NCBI RefSeq assembly: GCF_964204645.1
Contig: NC_134031.1
Span: 10,230,001-10,294,000 of the forward strand
DNA length: 64,000 bases
Direction: 5' to 3'
Source of the DNA: Tubulanus polymorphus
Lineage: Eukaryota > Animalia > Nemertea
Shown: positions 12,823 through 40,985 of the stretch, piece by piece
How positions within the stretch are numbered: position 1 is the stretch's first letter
Layout of the letters: each line of letters opens with the position of its first letter
Program-made: the position numbers and the translations under genes
The notes under the pieces: generated by a model
Database searches by the model: none
The model's input: the letters and a program-made list of their open reading frames with translations, nothing else
Told to the model about the DNA's origin: nothing

Positions 12823-12829
12823 CTTATTT

Positions 12830-16670: not shown

Positions 16671-16738
16671 AGTAATTGGAAGATGTGGGTTTCAGATCAG
16701 AGGACGAGAGGACGAGACACCACTCATCACCACAAGTA
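16671..16738 (+). repeat. Left TIR of Polinton B
   Basis: AGTAATTGGAAGATGTGGGTTTCAGATCAGAGGACGAGAGGACGAGACACCACTCATCACCACAAGTA; exact reverse complement of 33189-33256. Confidence 0.96.
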
Positions 16739-17046
16739 ATAATTCAATTGAGTATGAGACACCACTCATCACAGCTAGGCTCTAGTGAGAACGGACGATT
16801 GCTCTGTGACACACATATACAGTGAGTGCGCGTAACAACAGCTGCGCGTGGATAGATCGATACAGTGAGTCTCTACTGAGAACGGTTATTAATGCGTGTG
16901 CTATTACTGTAGTACAGTGATTGCGTGTCAACTGTACCCGGATAAATAGATGCTGTGAGGCTTGGGTGAGAACGGTTAATAGCGTGCTTGTTATATAGGG
17001 GAAGTAATCCCCACTCATCACCACAAGTAATTTGTTTTCCTTATAA

Positions 17047-17369
17047 ATGGGAGATAGAAAAGCATTCTTAGCAACAATAAATAACAGAATAAAACCAGCA
17101 AAAAAACAATTTGAAATAAAAAAGTTAGTTGATGTTACAAAAGAAATTGAACATAAAATATTGAAATTAGAAAAGATAAAAACTAAATATGGAGAGAAAG
17201 TATCAGCGAATTTAAGCTACTGTAATGTTAGTACATCGCGAGAATTTAAAGTATTTTTACCTGATAAATGGGTTTCATTGAGTACAGAGGAAAAGATTTA
17301 GAAGGATTTAAAATAATCTATCATGGAAAAAATGAAGACGGCCATCATGATTTAGAAATTGTTGATTAA
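17047..17369 (+). pseudogene. Conserved small Polinton protein (homologue of 33644-34009), disrupted near the 3' end
   Basis: Shared T.KYG.K, F...LPD and GKNE.GHHD motifs; function not established. Confidence 0.7.
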
Positions 17370-17452
17370 ATTTAAAAAAAATAAATTAATAAAAATAATG
17401 AATATCTAGAATCCGAAATGACTTATCTGGACAATTTAATTGCTCCGCATAG

Positions 17453-17483
17453 ATGGTGCCATAAACGGCACCCACACAGTGAT
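17453..17483 (+). repeat. GC-rich palindromic element, copy 3 (between convergent genes)
   Basis: ATGGTGCCATAAACGGCACCCACACAGTGAT. Confidence 0.75.
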
Positions 17484-17560
17484 AGACAAAAGTAGTGAGA
17501 TATTCAATTAATATTCAATTAATTAAAAAAAATTACTTTTTTTGCTTTTTTTCTAAAATA

Positions 17561-17929
17561 TTAATCCATTTTTTTTATTATCAATTTTGGAATTTCAGAA
17601 GTATTTTCATTTTTGATAGCAGTTGTTTCAGAATTATTAATATCATGAATTTTATTTGATTTCTTATACCAACTACACCCAATCAAAATGAATACAATTA
17701 CAAATCCAACTGTGAAATATAGACATTTATCAAATATTCTATCATTAGAAGGAGTAGAAATAACAATATTTTCACTATTTTTATTAACATTTTTATTACT
17801 TATTTTTTCTTTTACAGCTTTTTTATATTCTTGTGATTTAATTCCTAATTGCCGAGACCATTCAATTTGTTTCTGTGATCTCGGTTTTTTCTTCACAGTT
17901 AATTCCTTCACTTCTTCCACCTCGCTCAT
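17561..17929 (-). CDS. Polinton small basic protein with one predicted transmembrane helix
   Basis: 122-aa ORF with TAAATG start and hydrophobic CLYFTVGFVIVFILIGCSW. Confidence 0.7.
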   Translation of the reverse strand: MSEVEEVKELTVKKKPRSQKQIEWSRQLGIKSQEYKKAVKEKISNKNVNKNSENIVISTPSNDRIFDKCLYFTVGFVIVFILIGCSWYKKSNKIHDINNSETTAIKNENTSEIPKLIIKKMD

Positions 17930-18468
17930 TTATTATAGAAATATTTTTACTTTCAATATTTGAAAATGTTATAACCCCAGTTGATAATAATGTCATAAAT
18001 CCACCTAATTGAAATGATAAATATCCAATCCATTTATTTAATTCAGTCATAACTAAATAATCATTTTTTAAATCGGAATATAATCTATTTTCATCTTCAA
18101 TTGGTAGTATATAATTACATAATTTACTATAACCTTTTACTACATTTTCTGATATCGCGTCATTAATTCTAGCTGTTCTCGCGTCTTCATAAATCTTAAA
18201 TAATCTAATAATTTCATCTGATTTCATTGTATCTAATTCATTATAAGTTAAATTTTTACCGACAAAATTTTTACATTTTCCAGATGCTATTAATATTTCT
18301 AATTGATGTTTACAATAAAGATAATATTCATAATTATCATTTGTTGTAACATTATTTAAAGCACCATCATCTGGAATTAATTTTGTTTCTGTTATTCCTA
18401 AATCATCTAAAGTTTTTTTCAGTTGGAACATCACCATTTTTCAATTTTATTTTCTTTTCACCTACCAT
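17862..18468 (-). pseudogene. Conserved Polinton hypothetical protein (frameshift near start)
   Basis: Homologue of 13189-13799; the TAAATG start at 18468 is out of frame with the 18437 ORF. Confidence 0.7.
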
Positions 18469-18499
18469 TTATATAACAAAAAAATTAATTGTGTTGTTG

Positions 18500-18770
18500 C
18501 AACTAGAATTCAACTAGAATGTAACTAGAATTCAACTAGATTAACAAGCTAGTTGAAATATTGTTGTTTTTGTTTATTTCTTGTTAAATCTAGTTGATTT
18601 TTGTTCCAACTACTAACAACTAGAATTCAACTAGAATGTAACTAGAATTAAACTAGATTAACAAGCTAGTTAAAATATTGTTAAATCTAGTTGATTTTTG
18701 TTCCAACTACCAATAACTAGAATTCAACTAGAATGTAACTAGAATTCAACTAGATTAACAAGCTAGTTGA
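18500..18770. repeat. Three blocks of 11-bp phased repeats (AACTAGAATTC/AACTAGAATGT)
   Basis: Blocks at about 18500, 18617 and 18714, immediately downstream of the ATPase gene. Confidence 0.85.
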
Positions 18771-18772
18771 AT

Positions 18773-21119
18773 TTAAATAAATTCATATTTAAATGGGTGT
18801 TGTAATCTAAATAGTAATTTTGATCTTTTAATATTTTTCTCCTTATCCATATATTCATTATGTAAATCATGCGGAATAATATCATTTTCCTCAAGTGCAT
18901 TTTTCATCGATTTTCTATCTTTATTGTAGAATAAAACTAGAAATCTAATTTTTTCTCTAAAGTCTTTAACAATTGAATTATATTTTTGATTTAAAACCCA
19001 AGTTGTTATCCCAAAATGTCTGCCAGAAAAAGCTAAATAACATAACTCACTTTCTCTAACTTTTGAATCATGTAGATTAGCACAATCATCTATAATGAAT
19101 AATGTATTTGATCCTTTATAAATATCAATTGCTATTTTAATACAATTATCTAAATTTTCTTTTACTGTTTTAGGATCTAATACAAGAGCCCCAATGGGCA
19201 CAATGGCCAGCCTGTCAGATTTGCTTTTTATAAATGATGTAATCTGTTGGTTATATTTATCAATATACACTCCCTGCTCAATATCATTTACATAGTAAAA
19301 TCGTGTGTTAACACAGACAGCAGGAACGAATGTAATATAGAAATACGAAGTTATTGTATTGTTCAACGCCCCCTGGTGGCCATATACAAAAACCAATGAG
19401 CTTGAAACTCACCAAGATCATAGACCATGTCATGAGCTACAACTTTCCAATTGATTGTGGTAGCAAAATATGCATAGGTACGAATGTAATATAGAAATAC
19501 TAAGTTATTGTATTGTTCAACGCCCCCTGGTGGCCATAAACAAAAACCAATGAGCTCGAAACTCACCTCGATCATAGAACGTCATGAGCTACAACTTTCC
19601 AATTGATTATAGTAGCAAAATATGCTTAAGTATCAATTATGATGTGGAAAAACTTTTTTCCACCTACGAATGAGTACTGATGACTCCAAGATGGCCGCCA
19701 AGTGCGTCGTAATTGCCTGGTCAAAAATACCCTCTCGGATATAAAAGATCCCTTTCCAAAGAATACCCATTACAAATTGCAATGAAACATGGCACACCAT
19801 TAGAAAGCTACAGTACTCAGAATTCAGGCCAAAATTGACATTTTTGGGAACAAAAAAGGTCACAGTACAGCCATCTTGAGCCCGATCGACCCAATTTTTC
19901 TCATGCCGATGGGCCCACGGGGGAAACAAATATATACGAATTATCAAGGTTATTGATAAAAGTGTCTTCAAAATTTCCCTCGAAAACTTCAAAAATGTGT
20001 AAAAAGTGCTGATTTTGGCGAACAACAATGGCTGCCAGTCGGCCATCTTGAATCTGACAGGGCCAGTTTTTGGCCTGAAGATGTGTCTAGGGTAGATACA
20101 CGTATAAACCAAATATCAAGACATTACCTTGAAGCCTCTTCAAAACTTTGGAACTCTCACGAACTATCTAGATGGTTATCTCTCGACCTCAATAGCTTCA
20201 AGACCCATCTCAAAACAACTTTGTTCCATGCAGCATACCATTAACTCTCGGAAAGCGAATTGTATTTAACATTTTTTGGCAGAATAAAATTTGATTGAAT
20301 TTGCAATATGGGCACATGGCTAATTAGCATATCAAGGTCATACACCCGATTTGGTAAAACCATTTTTTTCGCGAATCTTGCGCAATTGTCAAGGATGAAT
20401 TTTCTGTAGAGCAAATAAAAATTCCTCCCAAACACCAAATCAACTAAAGATTTCATAGAAATCGATCTTGAAATACAATTTTAAATCTTAAAATAAAACC
20501 CGGAAGTAAAACAGTAGACGATACCGCGGGTTCACGTGAACACCTGATTTCTGTAAACGAAATGTTGGTTGTGACAAAATTGTTCAGACGGTTTTAGGTG
20601 GTAATAAGTACGGAAACGTAACGACCATGGTCGACTTATTCGATGAAATCAGGCCTATGTGATATCCAAATTTTGACTTTTTTATTCTCCAGACCTCCCT
20701 GATATAGAAATAAAAAATTTTGGTGGTACGAAAGTGCAATCACAGCGCCGACGGGGACAGAGCCGTGTCAGAGATCGATTCGAGAATGGACTACGCTTAA
20801 ATACGTGATTTGTTCGAATATGCCCTCACTTGACAAGCAAAAGAGCCTTTTGTGTGGAAACCATGTCATTTAAATTCGCTCCATTTGTATAGTAATAGGC
20901 TCAGCCTACGGCTGGCCTAATAATAAATTTATTATTTCTAGTAATATTTCTATCATAAGTTTGATTAAATTCATATGTTGGGCAAAATAATACTATATTA
21001 TCAAAATAGTTTTCATAAACAGTTTCTAATAAATTTAATATAAAATAAGTTTTTCCACAATTTGTTATGCCAGATATTAACATATTATGAGGCTCAAATA
21101 TAAATAATTCTTTATTCAT
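18773..21119 (-). pseudogene. Packaging ATPase of Polinton B, split by a 1.7-kb insertion
   Basis: 5' part 21119-20919 (GITNCGKT ... NNKFII); 3' part 19181-18773 (LDPKTVKENLD ... FIIDDC ... SGRHFGI). Confidence 0.9.
19182..20918 (+). mobile_element. Helentron-like non-autonomous (possibly composite) insertion with ~154-bp internal repeats
   Basis: Starts ACAAGAG, ends with the hairpin GGCTCAGCCTACGGCTGGCC, and has no TSD. 19340-19920 matches 58580-59800. Confidence 0.65.
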
Positions 21120-22190
21120 TTATATATTTTTAATTTTACTTGTTAATATCCATTTATTGAATTTATCTGGCCATCCAACCCATTTTACTAAAGAATATTT
21201 TTTTCTTTTAACAGTTTTTGTTTTTAATACTTTTTCAATTTTATATTCTTGTTCTAGATTTTCAGTAGTTACACTTAATTCTTCTTCGTAAAAATACCCA
21301 TCAACTTCTTCACCATCTAAATCTTCTAATTTATAGACATATGGTTTTGTTGTTATTACCTTTTTTATTTTATATATTTCTCTAGTAAAATTTCGATCGT
21401 ATCCCTTGTCAAATATCTTTTTATACTTAGAAATTCTAACATTTTGACAAACTTTAAATTTAGGTTCAGCAAAATCATCTACAAGAAATGCTCCATATAA
21501 ATTATTCCAAACAATTTCAGCATTTTCAGGTTTTCTAGCATCAATAGCTTTCATTCCAATAGAAGAATGATAAGAATTATTATATCCTTCTATCAATTTT
21601 GGTAAAACATCAATCCATTTAAAAGTATTATTTGCTGTAAAATATTTCCACATTCTTGTTCTTAATGTTCTATTAAATCGTTCAACAACTGCTGCTTTAT
21701 CCGATTTTGTTGAAAAATATTTAATATTATGATTGCCTAAGAGTTCATGAACAAGTGAATTATCAAATTCTTTTCCATCATCAAATTGTATTTTTTCTGG
21801 TTTTAGTTTATCATCCGAAAGAAATTTTCTTAAAACATTTGATGTTTGTACAGCATCTTTTCTATAAAGTGGGAAACTCCATACATAACGACTAAAAATA
21901 TCAATTTTATTCAATAACCACCAATAATCATCATTACCTTTCTTAACATTTTTCATATCTATCAAATCTCCTTGCCACTGTTGATCTACATAACTTACCA
22001 TAGTTTTACGAGTTTTATATTTTCTAACAATTTTTTTATGCGTTGTATATGTTGGTTGTTCTAACATAAATTCATTTATATCTTTATATTTAACTAAATT
22101 GTGTGGGATTATCTTATCTAATTTATCTTGTTTTACTTTACTCCATATATTTTTGGTAGAAGAATAAGCAACCGAACTCTCAGGGTTGTA
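21120..22190 (-). pseudogene. rve integrase + chromodomain of Polinton B, extreme N-terminus deleted
   Basis: WQGDLIDM, IQFDDGKEF, AAVVERFNRT and SLVKWVGWPDKFNKWI. The frame extends upstream to YNPESSVAY, where it is fused to the MCP gene. Confidence 0.9.
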
Positions 22191-23280
22191 ATGAATTATC
22201 CTCTGTTGTTCTAAAATCTAACCATAATGCATATTTATTACCGGTATAATAATCAATTTGATTAATATTACAATTTTCAAATGATTTTACTTTTTCATTC
22301 ATAAAATGTTTTCTAATTTCTGGCCATTGATCAATCATTCTCATTCCTTGACAAAATATTTTATTTGCTATTCCTTCGATAGTTATTTCTACTTTTGTTA
22401 TTTCAGGATTATAATAATTATCAACCTTTATTGCGCCATTAGAATATGTTGCAATGGTAAAAAATATTAATATACCTTTAATAGATCTTCTTGGGAAGTT
22501 AATATTCTCATTAATTATTTCATCATTTGCATTAATAGTTACAGTTTTAAATTTATCAATATAATCATATAATAATGAAAATCCTTGATTGTATTGAGTT
22601 TGAATTGTGCTAGCAATATTTTCATTAGTTACTGTGTTATATTCTAAACATATATTCGATAATTTATAACCCATATCTTTAACAACGCTAGATAATAAAA
22701 TTTCATTAACAGGAGCAAATGTTATCTCAAATATAATATCTTCTTGAATTGCGTATTTATATAATGTTGCATTATTATTTATCAATTCAAAGTCTAATGG
22801 GATTTTATATTTGCTTCCATAAATCTTTTTAATCAAATTATCTGTGGCACGAGTTACTATTGCGTCATTAGCTCCTGATCTTAATTTATTATGGTTTTCC
22901 GATTGAATACCCTGAAATATCATATTATTTCTATTTTCTTTAGTTAACCATAAATCTTTATAATGCATAAATTAATTATAATCATCTAATGAGAAAACTG
23001 TTTCTGGACCAATCTTTATAGTTAATTTTTTAATCAAATATCTCCCAACATTATCAACAACATAATTGTTATCATGGCCAGTTACTTTTATATCAGCTGA
23101 TAAATAAATACTATTTAGAACATAAAAAGTATTTTGTGTTAATCTAGGAATTCTAACATATAAAGTTTCATCGGGATTAATATTTGAAGGATTATGTGTA
23201 ATTATATGATGTGATCTTTCTGCTTTAATAGCATTAGATATTCTAGAAATCTTAGAAGGACTTATATAACTCCCACTCAT
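22180..23280 (-). pseudogene. Major capsid protein (double jelly-roll type) of Polinton B; one internal stop, C-terminus deleted
   Basis: HHIITHNPSNI.PDETLYVRIPRL, NVGRYLIKK, YKIPLDFE, NICLEY and YALWLDFRT; colinear with 39057-40303. Confidence 0.82.
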
Positions 23281-23300
23281 TTATTTAACAAAAAAATTAA

Positions 23301-24757
23301 TTATTTATTTTTAATCATATTCACTAGCCCAAAAATAATAGCACTTACAACTGTAATTAAAAATAAAATAATATGTTCAGCAGCAAAGTTAAGAATATTC
23401 CCAGCAGATTTCAATATAAAACCAACAATTGATGCAATAATTCCTGGCAATGCTGTACAAGTCCCTATACAAGTTAAAGCTAATTTAGTATTTTCATGTA
23501 ATTTATTATCATTATCAGTTTTAATTATATCATGTTGAATATCACCGTGTGGGTGCCATACGGCACCATTATCAGTTTTAATATTTTCTGTAGTATTGTA
23601 ATCTTTTATTCTAGAATCATTATGCAATTTAATATTTTTAGTTTTAGTTTATGTTGATTGAAGAAGTTTTTTATTTTTTTCACCTTCCATTAATTTTGGA
23701 GCATCTTTTTATTTATATCATTGAATCCAATTGAATTATTTATTGTTGCAGTTTTAATAAGATTATTATAACCAATTATATTTCCCATCTTTAATACTAA
23801 ATCATTAGAAATAATTAATAGATTAGGTCCTATACAATAATTTAATCTAATATGTGATTTATCTAAATAATTTTGATATCTTACAATGTTTTCTGGAATC
23901 GATCTATTTTTATCATTATGAATGGAATCTTCAAATAATACTTTGAATTGTTTCTGCGCATCAAACGAAGTACTATTATTTCCAACTATTGGTGATCTTG
24001 TTTCAACTTGTGCACCTAAAATACATATCAAATAAGTTCTAATTGATTGATTTATTCTTTGTATAGCAGGTTTTGTAAATCCTTCACTATAAGATTCAAT
24101 AAAATTAATCCATCCATTATTATTATCAATTCTATAATTATGATAAGCTCCAATTCTATGCATATAATCAATTCTTTTTATTTCATACTGTTCACCAACG
24201 CCATGTAATCTACCATGCGCTCTAAAATCGGAATTAATATTTATATTAAATTCATTACATATTTTGTAAAACTTAGATAGATTAATATTATTATCCAATT
24301 CTTTAAAATATTTCGATCCAGGTAAAGGGCATTCTAATTCATTTAATATTATTCTGATTTGAAAATATGTGTGAAATCTAAATATTGTATGAATGAATTT
24401 TAAATCAGAATATTTCAAATTTTTATCTAAGTTATTCAAGTGTTCATGCCAACTTACACCACAACCAGTTGTTGCACAATGAACAGCAAAATTTAATTGA
24501 TTCTGCTAATATTTCATATTAGATTTTACTTTATATATATTATATTCATATCGAGTAAAAGTAACTTCATATGTATTAAATATATTTTCCATTTTAGAAA
24601 TAAAATAGTTTGTTTCAGTAACATAAATTTCTAAATTAATCAATGAAGGCAAAACTAAATTTTTATATATTATTATGTTACTAAAATCTATTGCTGGAAT
24701 ATTATATTTATAATACTCATGTGATTTATTATATTGGAAAGCTTTTGGAAACCCCAT
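23301..24757 (-). pseudogene. Conserved Polinton gene (YxQNQLNFAVxCATTGCG family) fused by deletion to the hydrophobic tail of the next gene
   Basis: Colinear with 36279-37570, then jumps to ALPGIIASIVG (compare 38880-39035). Confidence 0.75.
23541..23569 (-). repeat. 29-bp GC-rich palindromic element, copy 4 (in-frame; absent from the homologue in A)
   Basis: ATGGTGCCGTATGGCACCCACACGGTGAT. B reads KTD-NGAVWHPHGD-IQH; A reads KTD-I-IQH. Confidence 0.85.
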
Positions 24758-24773
24758 TTATATAATAAAAAAA

Positions 24774-25200
24774 TTAATAATTAACTAATTCTTTTAATAA
24801 TTTATCTTGTTCTTCAACTTTTATATGACCATTTAAACTTATTATATAATCTAATGTATTCTTTAATTTATTAATTTCTTTTATATTAGTTTTAACTTTT
24901 TCTTTATTACTTTTTATATTTAATTTTGAACTTATACCAGTTAAAACACTTGAACTTAATCCTAATACACCAATTGATATAGCTAAAGGTGTTAATGGAC
25001 TGAATATTGCTAGAAATGTTATTACAGAACTAATTGTAACCGAACCACTAATAATCAAATAATGTATAATTTAAATATTTTTTCTTTTTAACTTTTAAAT
25101 CATTTTCAAATTCTAATATTTGTTTTTCTAAATATATCTTTAATTTAGTTTTATTTATATCATGAGGAATAATATCAATATTATCAACTTTATCTTCCAT
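24774..25200 (-). pseudogene. Polinton hydrophobic/coiled-coil protein (homologue of 35819-36262)
   Basis: ISGSVTISSVITFLAIFSPLTPLAISIGVLG; frameshifted; TAAATG start. Confidence 0.7.
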
Positions 25201-25219
25201 TTATTTAGAAAAAAAATTA

Positions 25220-25642
25220 CTAATTAGTAAATTTATATGCTACAAATATAACAATAACTGTTCCACCTAAAATCCAAATTATTTCATATTTCTGTTGTTC
25301 TTTACTTGGGGTATAATAATCTGATAATTTTGGTTTGTATAGATGTAATTTTTCTTTATTTGTTACCGCGTTATATAAACTCATTGCATCATCAACTAAT
25401 TGAAAATCTCTATGTGAAATCTTCTGATCATATAATTCCTTGTTAATATAATCCATATAGTTTTGTCGTTTTTCTCTGTATTCTTCTGCTGCTTTATTAT
25501 ATTTCTCTAATGCTAAATTATGTCTTCTTTGTTCTCCTAATGAACTATCTTTATCAATATGCTTAAATAAATAACCGCCACCAGTAAATGCTAAAGCGTT
25601 AACAATTGCTGATCCTATAATAGTTATAATTGCAGAAGCCAT
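25220..25642 (-). CDS. Conserved Polinton protein with hydrophobic N- and C-termini
   Basis: MASAIITIIGSAIVNALAFTGGGYLF ... IIWILGGTVIVIFVAY; homologue at 35371. Confidence 0.8.
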   Translation of the reverse strand: MASAIITIIGSAIVNALAFTGGGYLFKHIDKDSSLGEQRRHNLALEKYNKAAEEYREKRQNYMDYINKELYDQKISHRDFQLVDDAMSLYNAVTNKEKLHLYKPKLSDYYTPSKEQQKYEIIWILGGTVIVIFVAYKFTN

Positions 25643-25666
25643 TTATTTAGTAAAATAATTACACAT

Positions 25667-25885
25667 TTATATGGGAGGAATATATTTTTGTTTTTCCAAA
25701 TAATCAATAGTTAAATTAGAAAAAGTAACTGCTAATGTTAATTTTAAGATATCATTTATATCAAATCTATCAACATTAACACTTCCCATTTTGAATACTT
25801 TTTTTAATACCATTGAATAACCAACAGTTCCAACTGATAGTAATGCTCCATTATATAATCCAGTTATTATCCACTTATCACTCAT
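25667..25885 (-). CDS. Small conserved Polinton hydrophobic protein
   Basis: 72-aa ORF ending DYLEKQKYIPP; homologue at 35128-35354. Confidence 0.75.
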   Translation of the reverse strand: MSDKWIITGLYNGALLSVGTVGYSMVLKKVFKMGSVNVDRFDINDILKLTLAVTFSNLTIDYLEKQKYIPPI

Positions 25886-25899
25886 TTATTTATCAAAAA

Positions 25900-26242
25900 A
25901 ATTACTATCTTCAAAATATTTAGTTATCTTAGTGATGATTAATTCAACATTTATTTCATTACTAGTTTCATTTGTATATATTTCAATTATTATTTTTTTA
26001 ATATCATCGATGATAAAATCTTCATCTAATTCATAAAATCTTTAAGATTCTCTAATTAAATTAGTAATATTTTCTACATTAAAAGTTTCTTTATCTATTG
26101 TTGTTTCATACTCAAATGTTGTTTCATTAGAAAATGCAATATTTTTAATATGTGTTATTACATCATTAATGTTGAATTTCATTTCTTTCTCACGTTTAAA
26201 ATCAAACCCAAAACATATACTCGGTCCAACAGTTATATTCAT
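25900..26242 (-). pseudogene. Polinton hypothetical protein (homologue of 34785-35120), internal stop
   Basis: Shared MNITVGPSICFGFDFK start. Confidence 0.7.
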
Positions 26243-26258
26243 TTATATAATGAAAAAA

Positions 26259-27005
26259 TTACTCTCTACATCTTATAACTAATTCATAAATTACAGGAAA
26301 GTTATTCAAATCAATTAAATATCCATTATGATTTCTTATTTCTAATTTAAAATTATTAAATTTAGGAATGCAAGGTTTAAAATCACATTCTGTTAAATTA
26401 TAATTTATTTGAGTTCCAAATTGTTTAACATTTTTAGCGGTAAAATATTTCGTATACTAGAACTACAAATTGTTTCTTTAGTTGCTTCGAAAGTTTTTGT
26501 AGGATCAATTAAATTGCAATAAATATAAAAATGCGTAAAAGGTATTATATTTGGCTTAGTTTAAACATTTAAATACAGAATATTTGGATTAACTCCTAGC
26601 TAATGGTTTTCTTACTGCGAATTTATATTGTTCATTAGTTAAATTTATTCCTATTTTATTAGTACTATCAATTTTATTAAATTTAATATTAAATTTGGAA
26701 TCACCTCTAATTTGTATTCGTGCTTTTCTATTAATTTCTTGAGCTAATGTTTCTAAATTATATAATCCTGGTGTTAGCATAAGATCAAACCATTTATGAT
26801 TATTTCTATTAAAAATTAAAAAGGTTCTATGTTCATCAGTTTTATCCGTTATATTATAAAAAGAATTACATAAACTTATATTAACTAATTTTAAATCTAC
26901 ACAATTCTTAAATTCTCTATCTAATTGTACTAATTAATTATGTGATTTATAATTTGTAAGTCTTCTTGAATCAACAAATATTCTGTATTCTTTTAATTCA
27001 CCCAT
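26259..27005 (-). pseudogene. Minor capsid (penton-like) protein of Polinton B
   Basis: YRIFVDSR, LCNSFYNI, PGLYN, FYIYCNLI and LEIRNHNGYLIDLN; disrupted. Confidence 0.7.
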
Positions 27006-27073
27006 TATTTATAACACAAAAAAATTACCGCTCATCACTAAAAATTAATTTTAATAAAATTTTTCCTTAATAA

Positions 27074-27709
27074 ATGGATGAGAAGATACCATGTGAAATT
27101 TGTGGTGAACTTCTAAGAAAAAGTAATATGGCTCGACATATGAAAAAACATGATGAAAATTATAAACCCCCTAAACTAAACTGCCCAAAATGTAATAAAT
27201 TATTCTCAAGAAATTATGTTAAAAAACATTCAGAGACGTGTAAAATTAATGGCGCAACGGCTAATGTTGATAGTAACGAAAGTAATAGTAATTCTGCTGA
27301 AGTTGAACCTGAAGTTATTTGGAAAAGACCTTTCTTATTCTATGATAAGGATAATATAAAAGATCATTTCTGTAAGCCTTGTCGAATAAAATATAGCCCT
27401 GAAAATATAGAAGATTGGGAGAATCATCAATTTCGTAAAGCACATATAGATAAAATTTCTAATAAATTTGAAACTGAATTCAATGAAAGAAAAAATAATA
27501 TATTAGAAAAAATAAAATATGAGAAAACGTTACCAGATAATAAAGAAACAGTTGAAAAGTTAGATAAACAATATAATGAATTAACAAGAAAAACATATTA
27601 TTGTAAATATTGTAAATTGATTATTACAACAAGTAATCTACATAATAGAACAATAAAACATAAAGAAAACGTTAGAAAATACCGAGAGCTTAATGAAGAT
27701 TACCAATAA
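27074..27709 (+). CDS. Multi-zinc-finger (C2H2-type) protein
   Basis: CEIC..HMKKH, CPKC..H...C, CKPC..HQFRKAH and CKYC..HNRTIKH; TAAATG start. Confidence 0.82.
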   Translation: MDEKIPCEICGELLRKSNMARHMKKHDENYKPPKLNCPKCNKLFSRNYVKKHSETCKINGATANVDSNESNSNSAEVEPEVIWKRPFLFYDKDNIKDHFCKPCRIKYSPENIEDWENHQFRKAHIDKISNKFETEFNERKNNILEKIKYEKTLPDNKETVEKLDKQYNELTRKTYYCKYCKLIITTSNLHNRTIKHKENVRKYRELNEDYQ

Positions 27710-28377
27710 ATTATAAACGAAAATGTCCACAATGTAGTTATGCGACCTTTAGACAAGAAGGTACTGTGTTATTTTGTAATGAATGTGGATGGCAAAAGAA
27801 TTCATTGGGTGAAGAAAAAACTAGAAATTTTCTCATAGATCCAAAATTAAATTATCTTGATGAAATTTTTAAAATATTTTCTATAGAAGATCATACACCA
27901 GAATATATGCAATGGCCTGAAAAAATGAAAATAATAGAAAATAAAAATGGTGAAATAACTAAAAAAGATATTATAAAAACAATTATTCCGTCAACATTTA
28001 ACACAAAACAAAAGAAAATGTATTTATATTTATTATTTAACGATTATTATGAAAAACCTAAATTAACAGAAGATATGAAAAATATAAAAAAAATATTCAA
28101 ACAAATATTAATGTATCATTTGGAAAATAGAATAACAGATTCAATTAATCATGAATTCTTTTTAAATAAGATTGTAAATTATTTAAACATCGATATTATA
28201 ATTCCATTTGACGAATTAACAAACAAAAAGAAACAAAGAGAGCGAGATGAAATGTGGAACAAGATAGAACTTTATTTAAATGAGAAAAATGAAATGGAAG
28301 AAGAACCTAAACAATTAAATGAAAATGAAGAAGCCAATAGTGATTTCGAGTATGATGATATTGATTTTATGTTTTAA
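27697..28377 (+). CDS. VLTF3-like (poxvirus A2-type late transcription factor) protein; start codon apparently damaged
   Basis: The open frame from 27697 gives the zinc ribbon KCPQC-x13-CNECG, then KLNYLDEIF, PKLTEDMKNIKKIFKQI, SINHEFFLNKIVNYL and KKQRERDEMWNKI. This matches the VLTF3 pattern by eye. Confidence 0.65.
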   Translation, partial: RLPINYKRKCPQCSYATFRQEGTVLFCNECGWQKNSLGEEKTRNFLIDPKLNYLDEIFKIFSIEDHTPEYMQWPEKMKIIENKNGEITKKDIIKTIIPSTFNTKQKKMYLYLLFNDYYEKPKLTEDMKNIKKIFKQILMYHLENRITDSINHEFFLNKIVNYLNIDIIIPFDELTNKKKQRERDEMWNKIELYLNEKNEMEEEPKQLNENEEANSDFEYDDIDFMF

Positions 28378-31300
28378 TGACCATAAGGTAATGTTTTTAT
28401 ACCATCATCTAAAATATGCCTTTTATCATCAAATGGATTCAAACTAGTTTTTTCAACTTCATTAATGTACATCTCGTGATCTTCTGATCTTAAACAATTC
28501 ATTTTGTGTTTCATTACAATTGAGTTATATAAACACTTTATATAATCTTGAAATTCTATATGTTTATCAACCACATGTTTTGTTATTCCTTTTAACTTTT
28601 TAGCTTCATGATCTTTTGCTCTATAACTATACATTTTACTTCTTATCCCAACAAATTCAATCATTTCATCACCCCCTAATTCATCTTTAAACTTACCAGG
28701 AATCTTTTTATTATCATTGCTAAATAGTTCATGATCTTTGGGATAATTGCTAAAATCAAAATGATGTTTTAATGTTTTTAAGTCTTTTGTTATGTCATTT
28801 GTCTTGATTTTTAGTATGTAGGCGTCCGTATTTTTGGCTATTAATGGAAATCCACAGTTAAATGTACCATCTTAAGTTGATAAATCATAAACATAGTCAG
28901 TTGGGTTATATATTTCAAATAAATCTTTAACTTCTTCTGTTACTTCTTTTTCTACATGCCTTAAATTAAAACAATTTGGTTTAGATTTAATTAATTCTAT
29001 ATTCATATTAAATCCTAATGAACTGCATAATATATTTAATCCTGATATAGCAACTTTTCCTTTTTGAGCTAAAGATATTGTTTTGAAACTTTTTGAACCA
29101 TCTGCTGCATAGAATCCAATGAAGAACCATTTTCTTAAATTATTTTTTGCATTCAATACATAGTCTGGAACTATCTTTTCTTAAGTTGAAGTATTACTTT
29201 TAACTATTGCATGGATATAGAATTCGTTATTATATTTTGTAGCAAAATCTTTAGGGTTATTTACAAGTATTCTATAAACTGCTGTTGATATCATATGATC
29301 CACGATTCTAAATGTTTTATGTGAATAAACTTCTTTACAGAATTTCTTTATTCTTTCTAATAATTTCAAATCTTGATTGCATAAATACCAGCAATATTGA
29401 GTGCGATTAACATAATTATACACACCTGCTGAACCATCTCCCATGAAAAATCCTTTGTTAAAATATTCTTTTTCTTCTAATGTTTCGGGTTCTATGTTAT
29501 AAATATTATCAATTATTTCATCAAATGACATATGATTCATTCTTTGGAAAAATCTTTTATGTAATAATTCATCTCCAATTTTTATATTAGTTGGTTTTAT
29601 TTCATCACCATTTCGTTTAATTAAACTATGATCTTCTGTAACATCAACAAACCCTAATTTAGTTCTAACTCTATAGATTTTCTTATTTGTTTTATGCCTA
29701 ATAATATTCTTTAATTTTCTCCATCCATTTCTTGTCCAAACATCCATTAAACCATTTATTTGTATTCTTTTTAATATAACTGCTGTTAAATAATCTTCAA
29801 ATCTTTTATTTCCTAAATGTCTAGGACTTGATTGTAAATGTCTTAATCGTTCAGAATTATTTACTAATTCAATATCATTTCTATTTCTAATATTTTCACA
29901 TGTTTTACCATAAAAACTATTATTCATTAATTTGAAGAAATCTTTTTCAAAATCTGTTTTTGATATGGTTCTCTGTTGAGTATTGAAATCTATATATTTT
30001 TCTAACCACTTCGATTGATTAAATTCAATATATCTATGTACTTTCTTTAATTTCATTCCTTGTTTTAGATAAAATTTTAACATTCTATAATGAACAATAT
30101 AATTGTATTTATTATTTTGAGTAAGTATTAATTTTTCTGTAAAAACATGATCTTTCGGTTTTATTTTTTTTCTGGTATTCACTTAAATAACTATCATCTA
30201 CAGTTAAATGTTCTGGGCAATAAGGTAAGTTTCTTGTTTTAAACTTTATATTTTCAGGATATTCTAAATCAACTACAAAGAAATAACCAATTGGTGCTTC
30301 ATCTTCTAAACTCATAATTGCGCTTTCCCAATTAGTTTTATCATCATTTTCAACTTCTGTTTATATAAAATTTTTATATGGTTGAGGTTGCATCATTGCC
30401 CAACCATATAAATTATTGGCATCAATATATAATAATTTATATTCATCATTTGCTTTAAAATACCTATCTCCCATAACACCACTAATTCCACCTCTAATTG
30501 ATTTTTCAAATAATAAAACCATATCTGGTTCTTTTAATAAATCTAATTCTACATTTGTATATTTTAAACCACATTGCCAGGTTAAACCAGGGCTAGAGTA
30601 GCAATAACAAGGATCAACATTAAAATGATTCAAATTAACTTCTCTAAATTTTTCAAATATGTCAGCCAATATCATAACATCTGATTTTAAATATAAATCA
30701 ACTAATTCACCATGATTTTTCATCTTAAAATGATTCAAAATATTTAATGTTCTATTAAACACTTCGTCTTTCACATACTCCTCTTTTAATTGATCATAAA
30801 ATTGATCTTTTAATAATTCTGTTACATTAAAATCATTGTGTGTTTTATAAAATGAATAAGGAATTGCACCTTTATATCTCAATAATTTAAAATCTTGTTC
30901 ATTTGGATAATAATATCGAGTTATAACAAAATCATTATCAACTAAACTTTTTGATAAATTATCTAATGAACTTGCTAGAAATCTATAAGAATCTAAAAAT
31001 CTAATGCAACCAAATTGAAATAAAATATAATTTTCAGATGTTTTAGCTAATAGTTTAAAATCATATTTTCTTACATTTACACCATTCATAGCATTATATT
31101 CTTCTATTTCTTGATTAATTGCGCCCAATTTTCCCGATAATTGTTTTATAAATAGATGAGTATCATAGCCTGATAAATTATGAAATAATATTGGTACGAA
31201 ATTAACTTTCTTAGCTTGTAAATTGCAATCTTCATGAGCAGCTCCACGATATTTTGAATTTAAATGATCATGATCTCTAACTTTTTTATCAAATGAATAA

Positions 31301-33171
31301 AAACGTTTTTCACAATAACAACAATGAGTTGCATAATTAAAATCAATTTCATCTTCTTTTGTCATAACTATTCTTTTATTTTTGTTTAATAATTTTGCAA
31401 AATCACTTTCTAATTCAATCATTTTATCACAAAAATCATTAACTACATTTTCACCTCTAAAAGAAATATATTGACTTTCATATAATTCAGGATAATTTGA
31501 TTTTATATAAATTCCATAAGCAGCAGCTCTTTGATGAACTTTTTTAATTGTATTTATAATTGGTGGGTCTTGTATTGTGTCTTCATTTAATTCATATCCT
31601 TTATCCATTGAGTTTAATAATTGCTTTTTGTTATATATTTCTTTTCTATCTTGATCAGTTAATTCTTTATTCAACGATTCAAAATCCCCATGAATTACAA
31701 ATGGAACAATATTCTTAAATTTATGATTAGTAAATTTCAATTTATAATCTTTTTTTGTTGGCATTATTAATTTACAAAAATCTTTATTATCACATAATTC
31801 TTTATGTTTTAATAATGTATTCTCAGTCATAAATTTAGATAAGCATTTTCTACATAGATAAATTTTACGATGATGATCACTTTCTGTTCTAAAGAATAAA
31901 TCAATTTGTTTTAACCACATATAATGTTCATTTTCATCTTTTTTGTAATATAACAAATCTATAACATTTTCATCATCATAATATTCTGTTAAATATAAAG
32001 CTTCTAATGTATAATCTTTAATATTTTCACCTTTTGTCTTTGGTAATTGCATTAATTCGAATACATTTATTTTTAAATTATTAACTTTTTCTATTTTAGG
32101 AATCATTTTTATAGTTACTGGATATTGATCAATTTTATATAATGTTTCATATTTCCGGTAATCTGTTATTCTACAAACATTTTCCTGAGTTGGATGTAAG
32201 CAACTAATAATTGACCATAGAAAACATTTATTATCTTCATTTTGAATATTTATTACTGATTTCGTTGTAAATGGTAATTTAATATAAGATGATGCTTTAA
32301 TATCCTTTTCTGTTGTAAAGTTTGAATCATTTTTAAACATTTTATTACTTTTTGATGTTTTATTTCTTTTTGTATTATAAACATTTAAACCTAAATATAT
32401 AATTTCATTCAATGTTAAGCCAGAACCCTCAAAATATCTTTCTTCAATATGACGTTTAAATTCATTAAATATTTTTTCTAACTTCTCTTTTATTTGTGTT
32501 TTTGAAATTATTTCTTCAGAGTGTGTTTGAATATTATAATTCATTTTTTCTTCTGACTTTATAAAACTTACTTTCCCAGAGATACTAATTTTTGGATATT
32601 CAAGATCTGTTATCAAATCTAGTATTTTTTCTATTATTTCATTAAATGTACTATAATCTTCTATTGTTGTACCTTTAAAAAATCTAAATATAATAGCTGC
32701 AGGACCAATTTTACTACGTAATGTTTCTAATATTTCAATTGTATCTTTTATTTCTAGTGAATCAATATAATTTCTAACATTTTCCATGTAAGGTTTATTT
32801 GAAATGGATTTAGTTTTTGAAGTTGGTTTTTTTACTTTTTGAGGTTTATCATCAAAATAATCTTTTCCTAAAACATTATTACTCAAATTTTGATGGTGTT
32901 TTTGTGATTCGAGATGTCTATTATAATTCCTTTTTACTATAAATTCATTACAAACTTCACATTTTATTTCATCCACATTCATATTTTCTAATTGTTCTTT
33001 TCTTTCATTGGAATTTTCTGGAGTTTCAAAATCTATTACATTTTTTATATGATTTGCAGTTTTTTCATGTCGTGTGTTATTAGATGTATCGACGTATTTT
33101 TTACAATATTGGCAATAATATTGATTTTTATTAACATTATTATTTTCTGGCTGGTGTTCATTCTCCCCCAT
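28374..33171 (-). pseudogene. Protein-primed DNA polymerase B of Polinton B with N-terminal zinc fingers, endonuclease-VII-like insert and intein
   Basis: ExoI HGDFESL, ExoII FHNLSGYD, ExoIII YLKSDV, PolA YIDANNLYG, PolB KLMNNSFYGK and C-terminal SLNPFDDKR; frameshifts at about 30360 and 30165. Confidence 0.95.
28830..29765 (-). mobile_element. Intein remnant with LAGLIDADG homing-endonuclease domain at pPolB motif C
   Basis: Block B VDVTEDHSL, block C GFFMGDGS, block E GFYAADGS, blocks F/G YVYDLST*DGTFNCGFPLIAKN followed by extein TDAYILKIK. It lies in a single frame with two stops; block A is missing. Confidence 0.9.
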
Positions 33172-33188
33172 TTATTAGGAAAAAAAAA

Positions 33189-33256
33189 TACTTGTGGTGA
33201 TGAGTGGTGTCTCGTCCTCTCGTCCTCTGATCTGAAACCCACATCTTCCAATTACT
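33189..33256 (-). repeat. Right TIR of Polinton B
   Basis: Reverse complement of 16671-16738, followed by the TSD GAAATG. Confidence 0.96.
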
Positions 33257-33625
33257 GAAATGATAGAGTTCATCGGAATTCGATCTAAAATGTATAGTTA
33301 TAAAACCAAAACTCATGAATAAAAGAAATGGAAAGGAATTACCAAAAGTTTAGTTGCAAAGAATATTCATTTCAAAGACTACATCAATTGTATATTCGAT
33401 GAAGAAGTTAGAAAACATAAGTCGAAATGTTTAAGATCAGAAGATCATGAAATGTTTATTGAAGAGATAGAGAAGATAAGTTTGAATCCTTTCGATGATA
33501 AAAGATATATTTTAGATGATGATATACACACAGTTGCTTATGGTTGCAATTTAGATGAATACTTAAAGTTTAAAAGAGAAGAAACAAAAGAGAATGAGAT
33601 TATGAAAAGGATTCTAGCATGTTAA
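33257..33625 (+). pseudogene. C-terminal fragment of Polinton A pPolB
   Basis: EMIEFIGIRSKMYSY ... KGITK ... SLNPFDDKRYIL continues the frame broken at 16670. Confidence 0.92.
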
Positions 33626-33643
33626 TCAAATTTTAATAAAGAT

Positions 33644-34009
33644 ATGTATTATAAATGGAGAGTAAACAAGTACACAGTGAGAACAACACATCATTTTCTA
33701 AATAGAATCAAAGATGCTACAAATGCTAAATCAGTAGATTTTAAATTTAAAAAGTTAACAGAATTAACAATTCATAAGAAATATTTAATTACAAATATTG
33801 ATACAGTTACTAACAAATATGGAGATAAATTAGTTATTCACTTAGAAAATGAAGTGTTAAAAGGAAATAAATATAAATTCAGAACATATTTACCAGATAG
33901 ATTTCATAGATTATCAAGTGAAGATCTAGAAAAATTATGTTCAGGTGATTTCTATTTTATATACAAAGGTAAGAATGAAAAAGGGCACCATGATATAGAT
34001 TTCGAATAA
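33644..34009 (+). CDS. Conserved small Polinton protein (homologue of 17047)
   Basis: TNKYGDKLV...FRTYLPDRF...YKGKNEKGHHD; the likely true TAAATG start at 33655 is frameshifted. Confidence 0.7.
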   Translation: MYYKWRVNKYTVRTTHHFLNRIKDATNAKSVDFKFKKLTELTIHKKYLITNIDTVTNKYGDKLVIHLENEVLKGNKYKFRTYLPDRFHRLSSEDLEKLCSGDFYFIYKGKNEKGHHDIDFE

Positions 34010-34026
34010 GAAAATATGTAAAATAA

Positions 34027-34760
34027 GTGGCGGAATTAAAAGAATATAGAATATTTGTTGATTCAAGAAGACTTACAAGTTATAAATCACATAATTTACT
34101 AGTACAATTAGATAGGGAATACAAGAATTGTGTAGATTTAAAATTAGTAAATGTAAGTTTATGTAACTCCTTTTATAATATATCGGATAAAAGTATTGAA
34201 CATAGAGTCTTTTTTATTCATGACAGAAATAAGAATAGATGGTTTCATCTTTATCTTAAACCAGGATTATATAATTTAGAAACATTAGCTCAAGAAATTA
34301 ATAAAAGAGCACGCTTAAAAATGGGTGCATCTGCTGGATTTGGATTAAGACTTATTAAAAGTGATAGCTCTGATAAAATAAGAATAAAATTAGGCAATGA
34401 AGATCAACATCAATTTCTAGCTAAACTGTTAGGAATTAACACAGATGAAAGGATACGTAATGCTGATGCTACACCAAATATAATACCTTTTACACACTTT
34501 TATATTTATTGCAATTTAATTGATCCTACAAAGACATTTGAAGCAACTAAAGATACAATTTGTAATTCTGGTTTATTGAATATTTTACATTGAAGAATGT
34601 TAAAGAATTTGGAACACAAATAAATCATGATTTAGCTGAGTGCGATTTCAAACCATGCATTCCTCAATTTAATAATTTTTGATTAGAAATTAGAAATCAT
34701 AATGGATACTTAATTGATTTGAATAACATTCCTGTGATATATGAATTAGTTATAAGATGA
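34027..34760 (+). pseudogene. Minor capsid (penton-like) protein of Polinton A
   Basis: Colinear with 26259-27005; frameshift near 34590. Confidence 0.72.
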
Positions 34761-34784
34761 AAAGAGTATTTTTTTGATATATAA

Positions 34785-37700
34785 ATGAATATAACTGTTG
34801 GACCGAGTATATGTTTTGGGTTTGATTTTAAACATGGTAAAGAAATGAGAATTAAACTAAATGATGTAATTACTGATATTAAAAGTAAATCATTTAACAA
34901 TGCATCTATGATTAATAAAGAAAATTATAATATAGAAAAAGTAATTGATTTAATCAAAACATCTTTAAAATATTATGAATTAAATGAAGATGGAATTATT
35001 GATGATATTAAAAACATATTATCTAAAATATATGATAATCATAAAAGTAGTAATGAAATAAATGTTGAATTAATCATAAAAAAGACAACTAAATATTTTG
35101 AAAATGGTAATTTTTTTTGATAAATAAATGAGTGATAATAAGTGGATAATAACTGGATTATAAAATGGAGCATTATTATCAGTGGGAACTGTTGGTTATA
35201 CAATGGTATTAAAAAAAGTATTTAGAATGGGTAGTATTAATGTTGATAGATTTGATATAAATGATATCTTAAAATCAACGTTAGCAGTTACTTTATCGAA
35301 ATTAACAGTTGATTATTTGGAAAAACAAAAATATATTCCTCCTATAAATACGTAACTTTTTATTGAATAAATGGCATCTGCAGTAATAACTATAATAGGA
35401 TCGGCAATTGTTAACGCTTTAGCATTTACTGGTGGCGGGTATTTATTTAAGCATATTGATAAAAATGGTTCATTATCAGAACAGAAAAGACATAATTTAG
35501 CATTAGAAAATATAATAAAGCAGCGGAAGAATACAGAGAAAAAAGACAAAACTACATGGATTATATTAACAAAGAATTATATGATACGAAGATTTCACAT
35601 AAAGATTTACAATCAGTCGATGATGCAATGAGTTTATATAACGCAGTAACAAATAAAGAAAAATTACATCTATATAAACCTCAATTATCGAATTATTATA
35701 CCCCAAGTAATGAACAGAAGAAATATGAAATAATTTGGATTTTAGTTTGAACAGTTATTGTTATATTTGTTGCATATAAATTTACTAATTAAATATATAT
35801 ATTATTTTTGTTAAATAAATGGATGATAAAGTTGATAATATTGATATCATTCCTCATGATATCAGTAAAACTAAATTAAAATCATATTTGGAAAAACAAA
35901 TATTAGAATTTAAAAATGATTTAAAAGTTAAAAGGAACAAATATTTAAAAAGTATAATTATATATTATATATATATATATTATTTTATTATTAGTGGTTC
36001 AGTTACAATTAGTTCTGTAATAACATTTTAGCAATATTCTCACCATTAACACCTTTAGCTATATCAATTGGTGTGTTAGGCTTAAGTTCAAGTGTTTTAA
36101 CCGGAATAAGTTCAAAATTAAATGTAAAAAGTAATAAAGAAAAAATTAAATCTAATACAAAAGAAATTAATAAATTAAAAAATACATTAGATTATATTAT
36201 TAGTTTAAATGGTAACAGTTGAAGAACAAGATAAATTATTAAAAGAATTAATAAATTATTAATCTTTTTATTATATAAATGGGGTTTCCAAAAGCTTTCC
36301 AATATAATAAATCAATTAAACATAATATTCCTGCAATAGATTATAAAAAAAAATTACATAAAAAATTTAGTTTTCAATTCATTAGTTAATTTAGAAATTT
36401 ATATTACTGAAACACAGTTTTTTATTACTAAAATGGAAAATATATTTAATACATATGAAGTTACTTTTACTCGAGATGAATATCATATATATATAAAGTT
36501 ATATCTAATATGAAATATTGGCAGAATCAATTAAATTTTGCTGTTTATTGTGCAACGACAGGGTGTGGTATAAGTTGGAACAATCATCTTAATAACTTAG
36601 ATAAAAATTTGTCTTATTCAGATTTAAAATTCATTCATACAATATTTAGATTTCACACATATTTTCAAATCAGAATTATATTAAATGAATTAGAATGCCC
36701 TTTGCCTGGATCTAAATATTTTAAAGAATTGGATAATAATATTAATCTAAGTTTTATAAAATTTGTAATGAATTTAATATAAATACTAATACTAATTTTA
36801 GAGCGCATGGTAAATTGCAAGGTATTGGTGAACAGTATGAAATAAAAAGAATTGATTATATGCATAGAATTTCAGCTTATCATAATTATAAAATTGATAA
36901 TAATAATGGTTGGATTAATTTCATTTTAGAAAATAGTGAAGGTTTTACAAAATCAGGTATACAAAGAATAAATCAATCTATAAGAATATATTTAATTTGT
37001 ATATTAGGTGCACAAGTTGGAACAAGATCCCCAATAGTTGGAAATGATAGTACTTCATTTGATACACAGAAATAATTTAAAGTTTTATTTGAAGATTCTA
37101 TTCATAATGATAAAAATAGATCGATTCCAGAAAACATTGTAACATATCAAAATTATTTAGATAAATCACAGATTAGATTAAATCATTGTATAGGCCCTAA
37201 TTTATTAATTATTTCTTATGATTTAGTTTTAAAAATGGGAAATATAATTGGTTATGATAATCTAATTAAGACTGCAACAATAAATAATTCATTTGGATTA
37301 AATGATATGAATAAAAAGATTATCGCTGCTCCAAAATTAATGGAAGGTGAAAAAAAAATAAAAAACATATTCAATCAACTGAAACTAAAACAAAGAGTAT
37401 TGAATTGAATAATGATTCTAAACCGGATCACAATACATCAGAAAATATAAAAACTGATATTATTCAACATGAAATAATAAAACCCAATAATGATAATAAA
37501 TCACATGAAAATGCTAAATTAGCTATAACTTGTATAGGAATTGTAATAGGAGGAATATTATATTTTAAATTTCAATTTTCTTTATTATGTAAATGGATGT
37601 AGAAGGTGGAGAAGATTATGAAATGGAAGACATGGGAAATAATAATGATGGGTATATTGATGATTATAATGATGCTGAAACTAATATTGATAATGATGAT

Positions 37701-39035: not shown

Positions 39036-39056
39036 TCAATTTTTTTCCTTAAATAC

Positions 39057-40303: not shown

Positions 40304-40335
40304 AATTTTAATCTAAGTAAAAAATTCTATAATAA

Positions 40336-40985
40336 ATGGAAGGATGAATATATGAAATACAAAGTCCAAGTGAAATGATATCAGATATATATTATGTAAT
40401 ACCTTATGATGAATATAGTAAGTATTTTGGAGAATACTTTTATCAATTCAAATATAGAATAAGTAAAATAGATAATAATAAAAGTGGCGTTGTTGATAAT
40501 TTAAGTAATGAAATTGACAATAATGTTTTTCCTTCTACATCTAATAATGTTTTACCCTCTATATCTGGTAATGTTTTACCTTCTACATATAATAATGAAA
40601 TAATATTAAATTATAGTGAAAATAGAAATTATTTGGTGGTTATTGTAAAGGTGAATTTTCAAACAGCCCATCAAATTGGAATAACCAATTGGCTGTACAT
40701 ATTACTAATGTTATAAAACGTGTTGGTTTAAGAGAATTTATAGAACACTCATTTAGATACGTTACAAAGTTTGTTTCAAATAAAAAAGTAAATGGTAAAG
40801 ATTTATATAAAGATTTATTACGTGAATTTTTATCAAAGGAACCTGAACTCAGTAAAGATGAATTAGATTTAACTGATGCTAATAAAATATTAGGATCAAA
40901 CAAAATAAAGATACGGACGAAACTTAAAGTAGTAACTATTAATGATGCGGTATATAGTTTGAATAAGTATATCAATAAACAAGAG
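40336..40985 (+). pseudogene. Polinton gene after MCP, truncated by an ACAAGAGGCCCATGGGCC-type repeat
   Basis: TAAATG start; AT-rich coding style ends abruptly at about 40985. Confidence 0.55.

Follow-up and report, generated by a model that had tools for sequence, protein, structure and literature searches.

A predicted poxvirus A2-like VLTF3 domain, fused to zinc fingers, in a Polinton of the nemertean Tubulanus polymorphus with putative late-type promoters

Introduction

Do animal Polintons live autonomously or as parasites of larger viruses, and by what means are their genes transcribed? A locus on contig NC_134031.1 of the nemertean Tubulanus polymorphus (assembly GCF_964204645.1) bears on these questions. 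The stretch analyzed, hereafter the window, comprises 64,000 nucleotides (positions 10,230,001 to 10,294,000, forward strand). A reading of its letters alone (the sequence-only reading) had proposed that a Polinton here encodes a homologue of the viral late transcription factor VLTF3, and that the element, having no RNA polymerase gene, uses this factor to redirect the polymerase of a helper virus.

VLTF3 in a polintovirus is already known: it is reported in coral polintoviruses, where the available text calls it previously known, citing Krupovic and Koonin 2016 (PMC11131425). VLTF3 is also noted in several Polinton-like groups in the accessible part of 10.64898/2026.06.19.733378, and a figure legend of PMC8502044 mentions a mimivirus-like VLTF3 in midsize viruses with other replicases. 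In the open literature searched, we found no report of a poxvirus-type affinity, a zinc-finger fusion or promoters of the kind described below in animal Polintons. VLTF3 is used as a Nucleocytoviricota marker (PMC11253617, available text), therefore Polinton copies matter for such surveys.

Results

A Polinton nested in a Polinton

Polintons (Mavericks) have terminal inverted repeats beginning with AG and a 6-bp target duplication. Both are present in the inner element of the window, element B (Table 1), whose 68-bp repeats are identical. Together with the integrase, the A32-type ATPase and polB, these termini bear out the Polinton setting. The pieces of the broken polB are 69–91% identical to an unbroken 1336-aa polB at another locus, L121, and are also identified by sequence motifs; Pfam polB families gave no match on them. 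The capsid candidate matches Pfam Capsid_N weakly (E 0.064). Among 36 element ORFs scanned with Pfam, a set holding some but not all of the short broken pieces, no maturation protease of the adenain type and no RNA-polymerase family was found. The latter result agrees with the sequence-only reading, as does a comparison of the window with 231 poxvirus ORFs from around A2, in which A2 was the sole match, and only at the VLTF3 frame.

Table 1. Coordinates of element B and of the fusion gene within the window
Feature	Position	Strand	Basis
Element B (inner Polinton), decayed, 16,586 bp, lying within the outer Polinton's polB	16671..33256	.	terminal repeats, target duplication, gene content
Left terminal inverted repeat, 68 bp, begins AGT	16671..16738	+	100% identical to right repeat; 6-bp target duplication 16665-16670
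Right terminal inverted repeat	33189..33256	-	6-bp target duplication 33257-33262
Protein-primed-type polB, broken, decayed intein, T-tract/TAAATG start, convergent with fusion gene	28374..33171	-	L121 polB identity
Likely major capsid protein gene, stop-broken, T-tract/TAAATG start	22180..23280	-	weak Capsid_N, position, outer-element paralogue
Retroviral-type integrase with chromodomain	21120..22217	-	Pfam rve E 2e-9, Chromo E 4e-4
A32-type packaging ATPase, insertion-split, TAAATG start	18773..21119	-	Pfam Pox_A32 on both pieces
Zinc-finger/VLTF3 fusion gene, frameshift-broken near 27.70 kb	27074..28377	+	relatives, tblastn frame change, reads of other copies
N-terminal half: four CxxC...H/C zinc fingers (C2H2 and U1-type)	27074..27709	+	Pfam, finger patterns
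C-terminal half: predicted VLTF3/A2-type domain	27697..28377	+	Foldseek, hhalign, ESM Atlas
C4 zinc ribbon: C10, C13, C27, C30 of frame	27724..27786	+	invariant in alignment A1; aligned to A2 ribbon
Predicted helical domain, weakly like one cyclin/TFIIB repeat	27823..28299	+	VIA-align
T-tract + TAAATG start motif of fusion gene	27055..27076	+	poxvirus late-promoter layout

Several features of the element are side observations. Within its polB lies a decayed intein that includes a LAGLIDADG domain (about 28830-29755, minus strand; PF14890 E 4e-5, PF14528 E 2e-3). The intein ends just before a threonine of the polymerase catalytic motif and is missing from the polB of the outer element and from that of L121. 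An insertion at 19186-20919, about 1.7 kb long, interrupts the ATPase gene and contains a 154-bp repeat family that is also found at 58500-64000. Within the element, next to the left terminal repeat, the stretch 16739-17030 is GC-richer and holds partial copies of the repeat's inner end; both element termini lead into a T-tract/TAAATG start.

The VLTF3 frame is the second half of a broken fusion gene

The frame 27697-28377 (plus strand) is open from stop to stop over 226 codons. It holds the zinc ribbon CPQC-x13-CNECG (residues 10-31) as well as KLNYLDEIF, PKLTEDMKNIKKIFKQI, SINHEFFLNKIVNYL and QRERDEMWNKI, so that the ribbon and all body motifs listed by the sequence-only reading are present in it. 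Its first in-frame ATG, at 27907, lies 3' of the ribbon; the frame overlaps the end of a 211-codon zinc-finger ORF (27074-27709) and abuts the convergent polB gene. The upstream ORF matches zf-U1 (E 3e-6) and zf-C2H2 (E 3e-4) in Pfam, and four finger patterns are found both there and at L121.

A HMMER search of 1.84 billion representatives gave three matches: P0002 (697 aa, E 2e-38, 45%), P0003 (446 aa, E 2e-20) and P0004 (281 aa, E 9e-5). Homology to the finger ORF is found in the same chain as VLTF3 in P0002 (E 4e-28) and P0003 (E 2e-7), while P0004 stands alone, without the finger half. In tblastn, the unbroken 697-aa relative aligned to the finger frame until 27694 and to the VLTF3 frame from 27700. 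Because this relative spans both window frames, 27697-28377 is the 3' half of a longer gene that starts at 27074 (TAAATG, 27071-27076). Of the 230 reads of run X6, 122 have an indel near 27.70 kb, as do contigs of runs X1 and X2; these sequences come from other copies in the same species. The window copy cannot encode the whole protein in one frame.

The sequence-only reading had instead placed the start of the VLTF3 gene at a TAAAT[G]TAT that had lost its G, at about 27712. This start is not supported by the reads, by the bases upstream of it or by the alignment of the unbroken relative: the TAAAT at 27707 has only two Ts in the seven positions from -13 to -7, no indel at the proposed site is among those listed in reads of other copies, and the break lies near 27.70 kb.

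At L121 the 697-aa fusion protein is unbroken, has a T-tract/TAAATG start and is convergent with the unbroken 1336-aa polB, as in the window. In alignment A1, whose members are 27–44% identical, none of the four ribbon cysteines varies and the helical core is conserved. Relatives were sparse elsewhere: a metagenome scan, covering 24 of 64 parts, gave one confirmed locus among 596 matched stretches; word-index protein searches at near and longer lengths gave no relatives, and with alignment A1 just one of its own members; scans of viral contigs with the window VLTF3, capsid, integrase, P0002 and A1 gave none; and a phage collection held no match. A small share of the window is present in a marine metagenome, and no RNA runs containing the window were listed.

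Within the species, read depth over the gene was about 180–320 from 1.93 Gb of reads, most of them 90–99% alike, in an analysis covering positions 26900-28500 only. The element family is multicopy and diverged. Just upstream of the fusion gene the depth rises to about 650, and 322 reads diverge there into outer-element-like sequence; many relatives therefore lack the gene at that place. A second VLTF3 remnant was not found elsewhere in the window, where the outer element is partly deleted.

The C-terminal half resembles poxvirus A2

Whereas Pfam Pox_VLTF3 (PF04947) gave no match at E<=1 for the window protein or its three relatives, profile-profile alignment (hhalign) against Pfam-verified members did, with a probability of 97.3% (E 2.4e-11, 192 columns) for 19 poxvirus A2 proteins and of 94.5% (E 8e-8, 183 columns) for 40 other NCLDV VLTF3 proteins. 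The zinc-ribbon cysteines of the window domain align with those of A2. Identity to poxvirus A2 is 22–25%.

The NCLDV reference came from a motif scan that gave 120 giant-virus loci; these yielded 73 ORFs of fitting length and 40 after removal of near-duplicates, all 40 passing PF04947. The poxvirus reference was gathered with a motif derived from the Polinton alignment, which picked out 41 stretches in 2.9 million viral contigs. An ORF was obtained from 39 of them, and 38 of these ORFs encode A2-type proteins of 224–270 aa, of which 19 were aligned (four of four tested pass PF04947). Picking the poxvirus set with a Polinton-derived motif favors poxviruses in this comparison, a bias of which the structure search below is free. 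Egovirus, asfarvirus and mriyavirus proteins are absent from both sets.

On the four Polinton-type domains, the poxvirus A2 profile scored 30.1 (window protein), 34.6, 33.2 and 16.5 bits, with a maximum of 8.6 for shuffled sequences, and the NCLDV profile 11.5 (window protein), 8.1, 10.1 and -10.9 bits, with a shuffled maximum of 5.1; the untrimmed 40-sequence NCLDV profile gave the window protein 1.7 bits. One of the 40 NCLDV proteins reached 41 bits against the Polinton profile, within the poxvirus range of 36–52.

A structural model built from a four-sequence alignment (mean pLDDT 67) was compared by Foldseek, prediction against prediction. Poxvirus VLTF3 took the first three ranks, namely cowpox, DlEPV and MsEPV (E 4e-7, 1.4e-6 and 1.3e-5; TM 0.49–0.54, with 0.54 for the top match, cowpox). 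An unnamed 278-aa protein followed at rank 4 (E 3e-4), and named VLTF3 proteins of other NCLDV appeared from E 3e-3 down, the iridovirus and ASFV (B385R) homologues at ranks 14 and 18. With a single-sequence model (pLDDT 50), poxvirus VLTF3 held ranks 2–4 (E 0.03–0.04). In the ESM Atlas, 28 of 30 matches fell in Pox_VLTF3 clusters (best 0.96), at a recognition value below threshold.

The sequence-only reading had also expected likeness to TFIIB. VIA-align gave Z 5–6 to the Rb pocket, cyclins and TFIIB-family chains over about 90 residues (rmsd 3.5–4.3), which is below the tool's trust level; the TFIIB-family chains, at Z 5.0–5.7, are tied with cyclins and Rb, with one repeat's worth aligned. 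Foldseek against the PDB gave no match at E<=0.001; sequence searches of the PDB gave no relevant match, and no solved VLTF3 structure was found in them.

The architecture agrees with that of poxvirus A2: over about 190 residues the two proteins are collinear, with the zinc ribbon first and the helical domain after it, and they share the motifs KL.xL and S/T-I-N-x-x-F-F-L-x-K-I. The VLTF3 layout first proposed is upheld as ribbon-helical homology, and its motifs agree better with the poxvirus form (KLIHL, TINYSFFLDKI) than with the form then quoted (R..HF.E.L, FLNY.YVL). Unlike A2, the window domain lies behind four zinc fingers and has diverged below Pfam detection. Taken together, the profile-profile alignments and predicted structures indicate that the frame is a real VLTF3 homologue of the poxvirus-A2-like type. 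A tree of four Polinton-type, 19 poxvirus and 20 of the 40 NCLDV rows showed three groups and no sister relation; because it is unrooted and has long branches, it names no donor.

Gene starts follow a late-promoter-like motif

Transcripts of poxvirus late genes begin inside TAAAT and bear a 5' poly(A) leader. In vaccinia, a late promoter consists of TAAAT, in most cases with a G next to it so that the motif overlaps the start codon, and of a conserved T at -10 that lies among other Ts (PMC11980589, available text); the TAAAT(G) motif is also treated in the accessible parts of PMC4542343 and PMC1550435. In element B, 11 of the 26 starts of ORFs of at least 50 aa read TAAATG, compared with 36 of the 644 other ATGs (p 2e-7). 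In the flanking DNA the corresponding counts are 3/48 and 28/959 (p 0.18), and in the two parts of the outer element 3/8 (p 0.003) and 4/21 (p 0.07) of the starts have it. The gene-start TAAATG sites, which number 12 with one added by homology, are preceded by a T-tract at -13 to -7, centered at -10 (p 4e-6); T occupies -10 at 10 of these 12 sites as against 9 of the 35 other TAAATG in the element.

AATAAA lies within seven of the 12 gene starts. However, the motif is not only a stop-start overlap or a poly(A) signal, because it also precedes genes without an upstream same-strand gene (those starting at 27074, 33171 and 17047). Compared with 64 mixed poxvirus TAAATG starts, the T profile agrees weakly in register (Spearman 0.26, p 0.27) and has a correlation of 0.73 at a one-base shift, the best of six shifts. 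By its sequence, the start motif of the element fits the poxvirus late-promoter layout and is a putative promoter.

The sequence-only reading had suggested checking whether VLTF3 and TAAATG starts co-occur across Polinton families. Among four fragment loci they proved not to be tied: L121, which has VLTF3, shows TAAATG at two of three starts, while L165, L163 and L164, in which VLTF3 was not found, show it at 6/10, 0/17 and 0/3. Nor do all polB elements have the motif. L165 (L165:1-9034) is an unrelated Polinton fragment of 38% GC, and its TAAATG starts (p 3e-8) suggest that the motif is spread more widely among Polintons.

Discussion

We propose that an element carrying this A2-like finger fusion is transcribed by the RNA polymerase of a putative co-infecting poxvirus-like helper, a reading to which we give about an even chance. 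The T-tract/TAAATG motif would be the promoter, and transcription would presumably start within it, on the pattern of the late genes of vaccinia. Polymerase and remaining late factors would come from the helper. The factor encoded by the element, which would itself be expressed from a late-type promoter, would come into play after them: its zinc fingers may keep it bound to element DNA while its ribbon and helical domain would bring in the polymerase, so that the element is transcribed more at the helper's expense. The element-encoded factor is probably accessory, because related elements carry the motif without VLTF3. TAAATG starts are present, and VLTF3 was not found, in the outer element and in fragment L165.

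Compared with poxvirus A2, the window gene sits in a 16.6-kb integrating element, where neither an RNA polymerase nor the other late factors were found. Vaccinia A2L is an intermediate gene in the available text of PMC11980589, whereas the fusion gene has a late-type start. Two kinds of elements offer precedents. Mavirus, an integrating Polinton relative, shares the late promoter motif of its helper, Cafeteria roenbergensis virus (CroV), its genes using this motif and being switched on by CroV (10.1101/068312, available text). In that case the late factor is proposed to be encoded by the helper, the host is a protist and the helper is known, while the window element has its own factor and no helper was found. 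Polinton-like viruses associated with entomopoxviruses also exist, and are proposed as hyperparasites of poxviruses in animals (PMC11296320, available text). These were recovered from occlusion bodies, whereas the window element is a chromosomal copy bounded by terminal inverted repeats. The available main text of PMC11296320 has no mention of VLTF, TAAAT, a motif, a transcription factor or RNA polymerase; VLTF and TAAAT are likewise unmentioned in 10.64898/2026.10.13.758929. The polintoviruses of stony corals likewise have VLTF3 as an accessory gene beside polB and retroviral integrase; the accessible part of PMC11131425 does not mention the VLTF3 type or finger fusions, and 'promoter' is absent from its main text.

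In a broader version of this proposal, a lineage of animal Polintons would live as endogenous 'virophages' on a poxvirus-type virus, so far undiscovered, that infects marine invertebrates. Poxvirus late promoters would drive every gene of the lineage, and some members would have captured A2 from the helper and equipped it with four zinc fingers, as a sequence-targeted adaptor that draws the helper's polymerase to the element. We advance this version tentatively, judging it somewhat more probably wrong than right.

The sequence-only reading had deduced a helper polymerase from the absence of an RNA polymerase gene. This deduction by itself does not hold, because nuclear viruses without an RNA polymerase keep VLTF3; the proposal draws its support from the element-wide T-tract/TAAATG starts. 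Mriyaviruses, ariadnaviruses and CpV-BQ1 have VLTF3 and no RNA polymerase and are thought to use the nucleus, in the available texts (PMC11253617, 10.64898/2026.08.29.747986, PMC12085832). The first two groups belong to Nucleocytoviricota, keep VLTF2 and have no DNA polymerase, while the window element has polB and an integrase, and VLTF2 was not found in it. By analogy with these viruses, the element could be autonomous in the nucleus, its VLTF3 working in the manner of TFIIB with the RNA polymerase II of the host and its fingers reading element promoters. That the element integrates speaks for such autonomy, as does the weak fold likeness to TFIIB-family chains, and the finger fusion could stand in for viral partner factors, none of which was found when the window was compared with the 231 poxvirus ORFs. 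However, the factor's affinity is to cytoplasmic poxviruses, elements with the motif in which no VLTF3 was found exist, and the VLTF3 gene itself starts at such a motif. An ordinary polymerase II TATA box sits some 25–30 bases upstream of the start site, a role that a TATA-like motif placed over the start codon cannot fill. We consider nuclear autonomy unlikely.

A polymerase donor other than a poxvirus, such as another Pokkesviricetes-like virus or an autonomous cytoplasmic linear element, might fill the helper's place, or the gene might be captured cargo that works as a DNA-binding or replication protein. KilA is reported to have flowed from pox-related egoviruses into polintons (10.1101/2024.03.23.586382, available text), the VLTF3 gene is a neighbor of polB at L121 as it is in the window, and fingers of a similar kind open polB; the ESM Atlas, moreover, has short VLTF3-like clusters of mixed viral origin, and the gaps in our reference sets concern egoviruses, asfarviruses and mriyaviruses. 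The low rank of the ASFV and iridovirus homologues in the structure search, far below poxviruses, counts against another partner, and a cargo role would leave the element-wide promoter motif unexplained. We regard this group of readings as quite unlikely.

Dependence on a helper could also take a different form: instead of activating transcription, VLTF3 might act as a decoy, sequestering the polymerase or the late factors of the helper and so reducing helper output. The promoter and homology evidence is the same as for the adaptor role proposed above; the divergence from poxvirus A2 and the accessory distribution are compatible with a decoy, and mavirus acts as an inducible antiviral defence (10.1101/068312, available text). 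The four ribbon cysteines and the helical core are, however, kept across distant relatives as in a working factor, and the fused fingers would suggest targeting rather than mere titration, which makes a decoy very unlikely in our judgment. Finally, a spurious likeness produced by a zinc ribbon and AT-driven composition, for which the missing Pfam match, the marginal untrimmed NCLDV profile and the Atlas value below threshold might be cited, has next to no probability and is refuted by the profile-profile alignment over 192 columns, the Foldseek match, the shuffles scoring under 9 bits and the exclusive match of A2 among the poxvirus ORFs.

If the poxvirus-like helper reading is right, the union of a late factor with late promoters in one element predicts that transcripts begin inside TAAAT and bear poly(A) leaders, that the promoters work with a poxvirus polymerase, and that the host is infected by a poxvirus-like virus. 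As a distant and naturally fused A2 homologue, the protein is also material for working out the role of VLTF3.

Surroundings of the element in the window

The outer Polinton (about 11250-16670 and 33257-41000) shares approximately 85–90% identity with element B over the capsid block, in a different order, and has TAAATG starts; no VLTF3 remnant was found in it. A third Polinton fragment, with ATPase and integrase (44800-46800), is about 90% identical to the left part of the outer element. Two small conserved-looking ORFs on the plus strand, 33626-34009 and 17047-17301, adjoin polB or a terminal repeat; their Atlas matches are unnamed eukaryote clusters (0.94), with a weak lead to a phi29-type single-strand binding protein (0.82). 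The window flanks of the element hold retroelements and eukaryotic domains, and inverted arrays of a 144-bp repeat (1-720 and 7697-8860) flank a segment with a 632-codon ORF (1965-3863), the end of which we take to be HECT-like.
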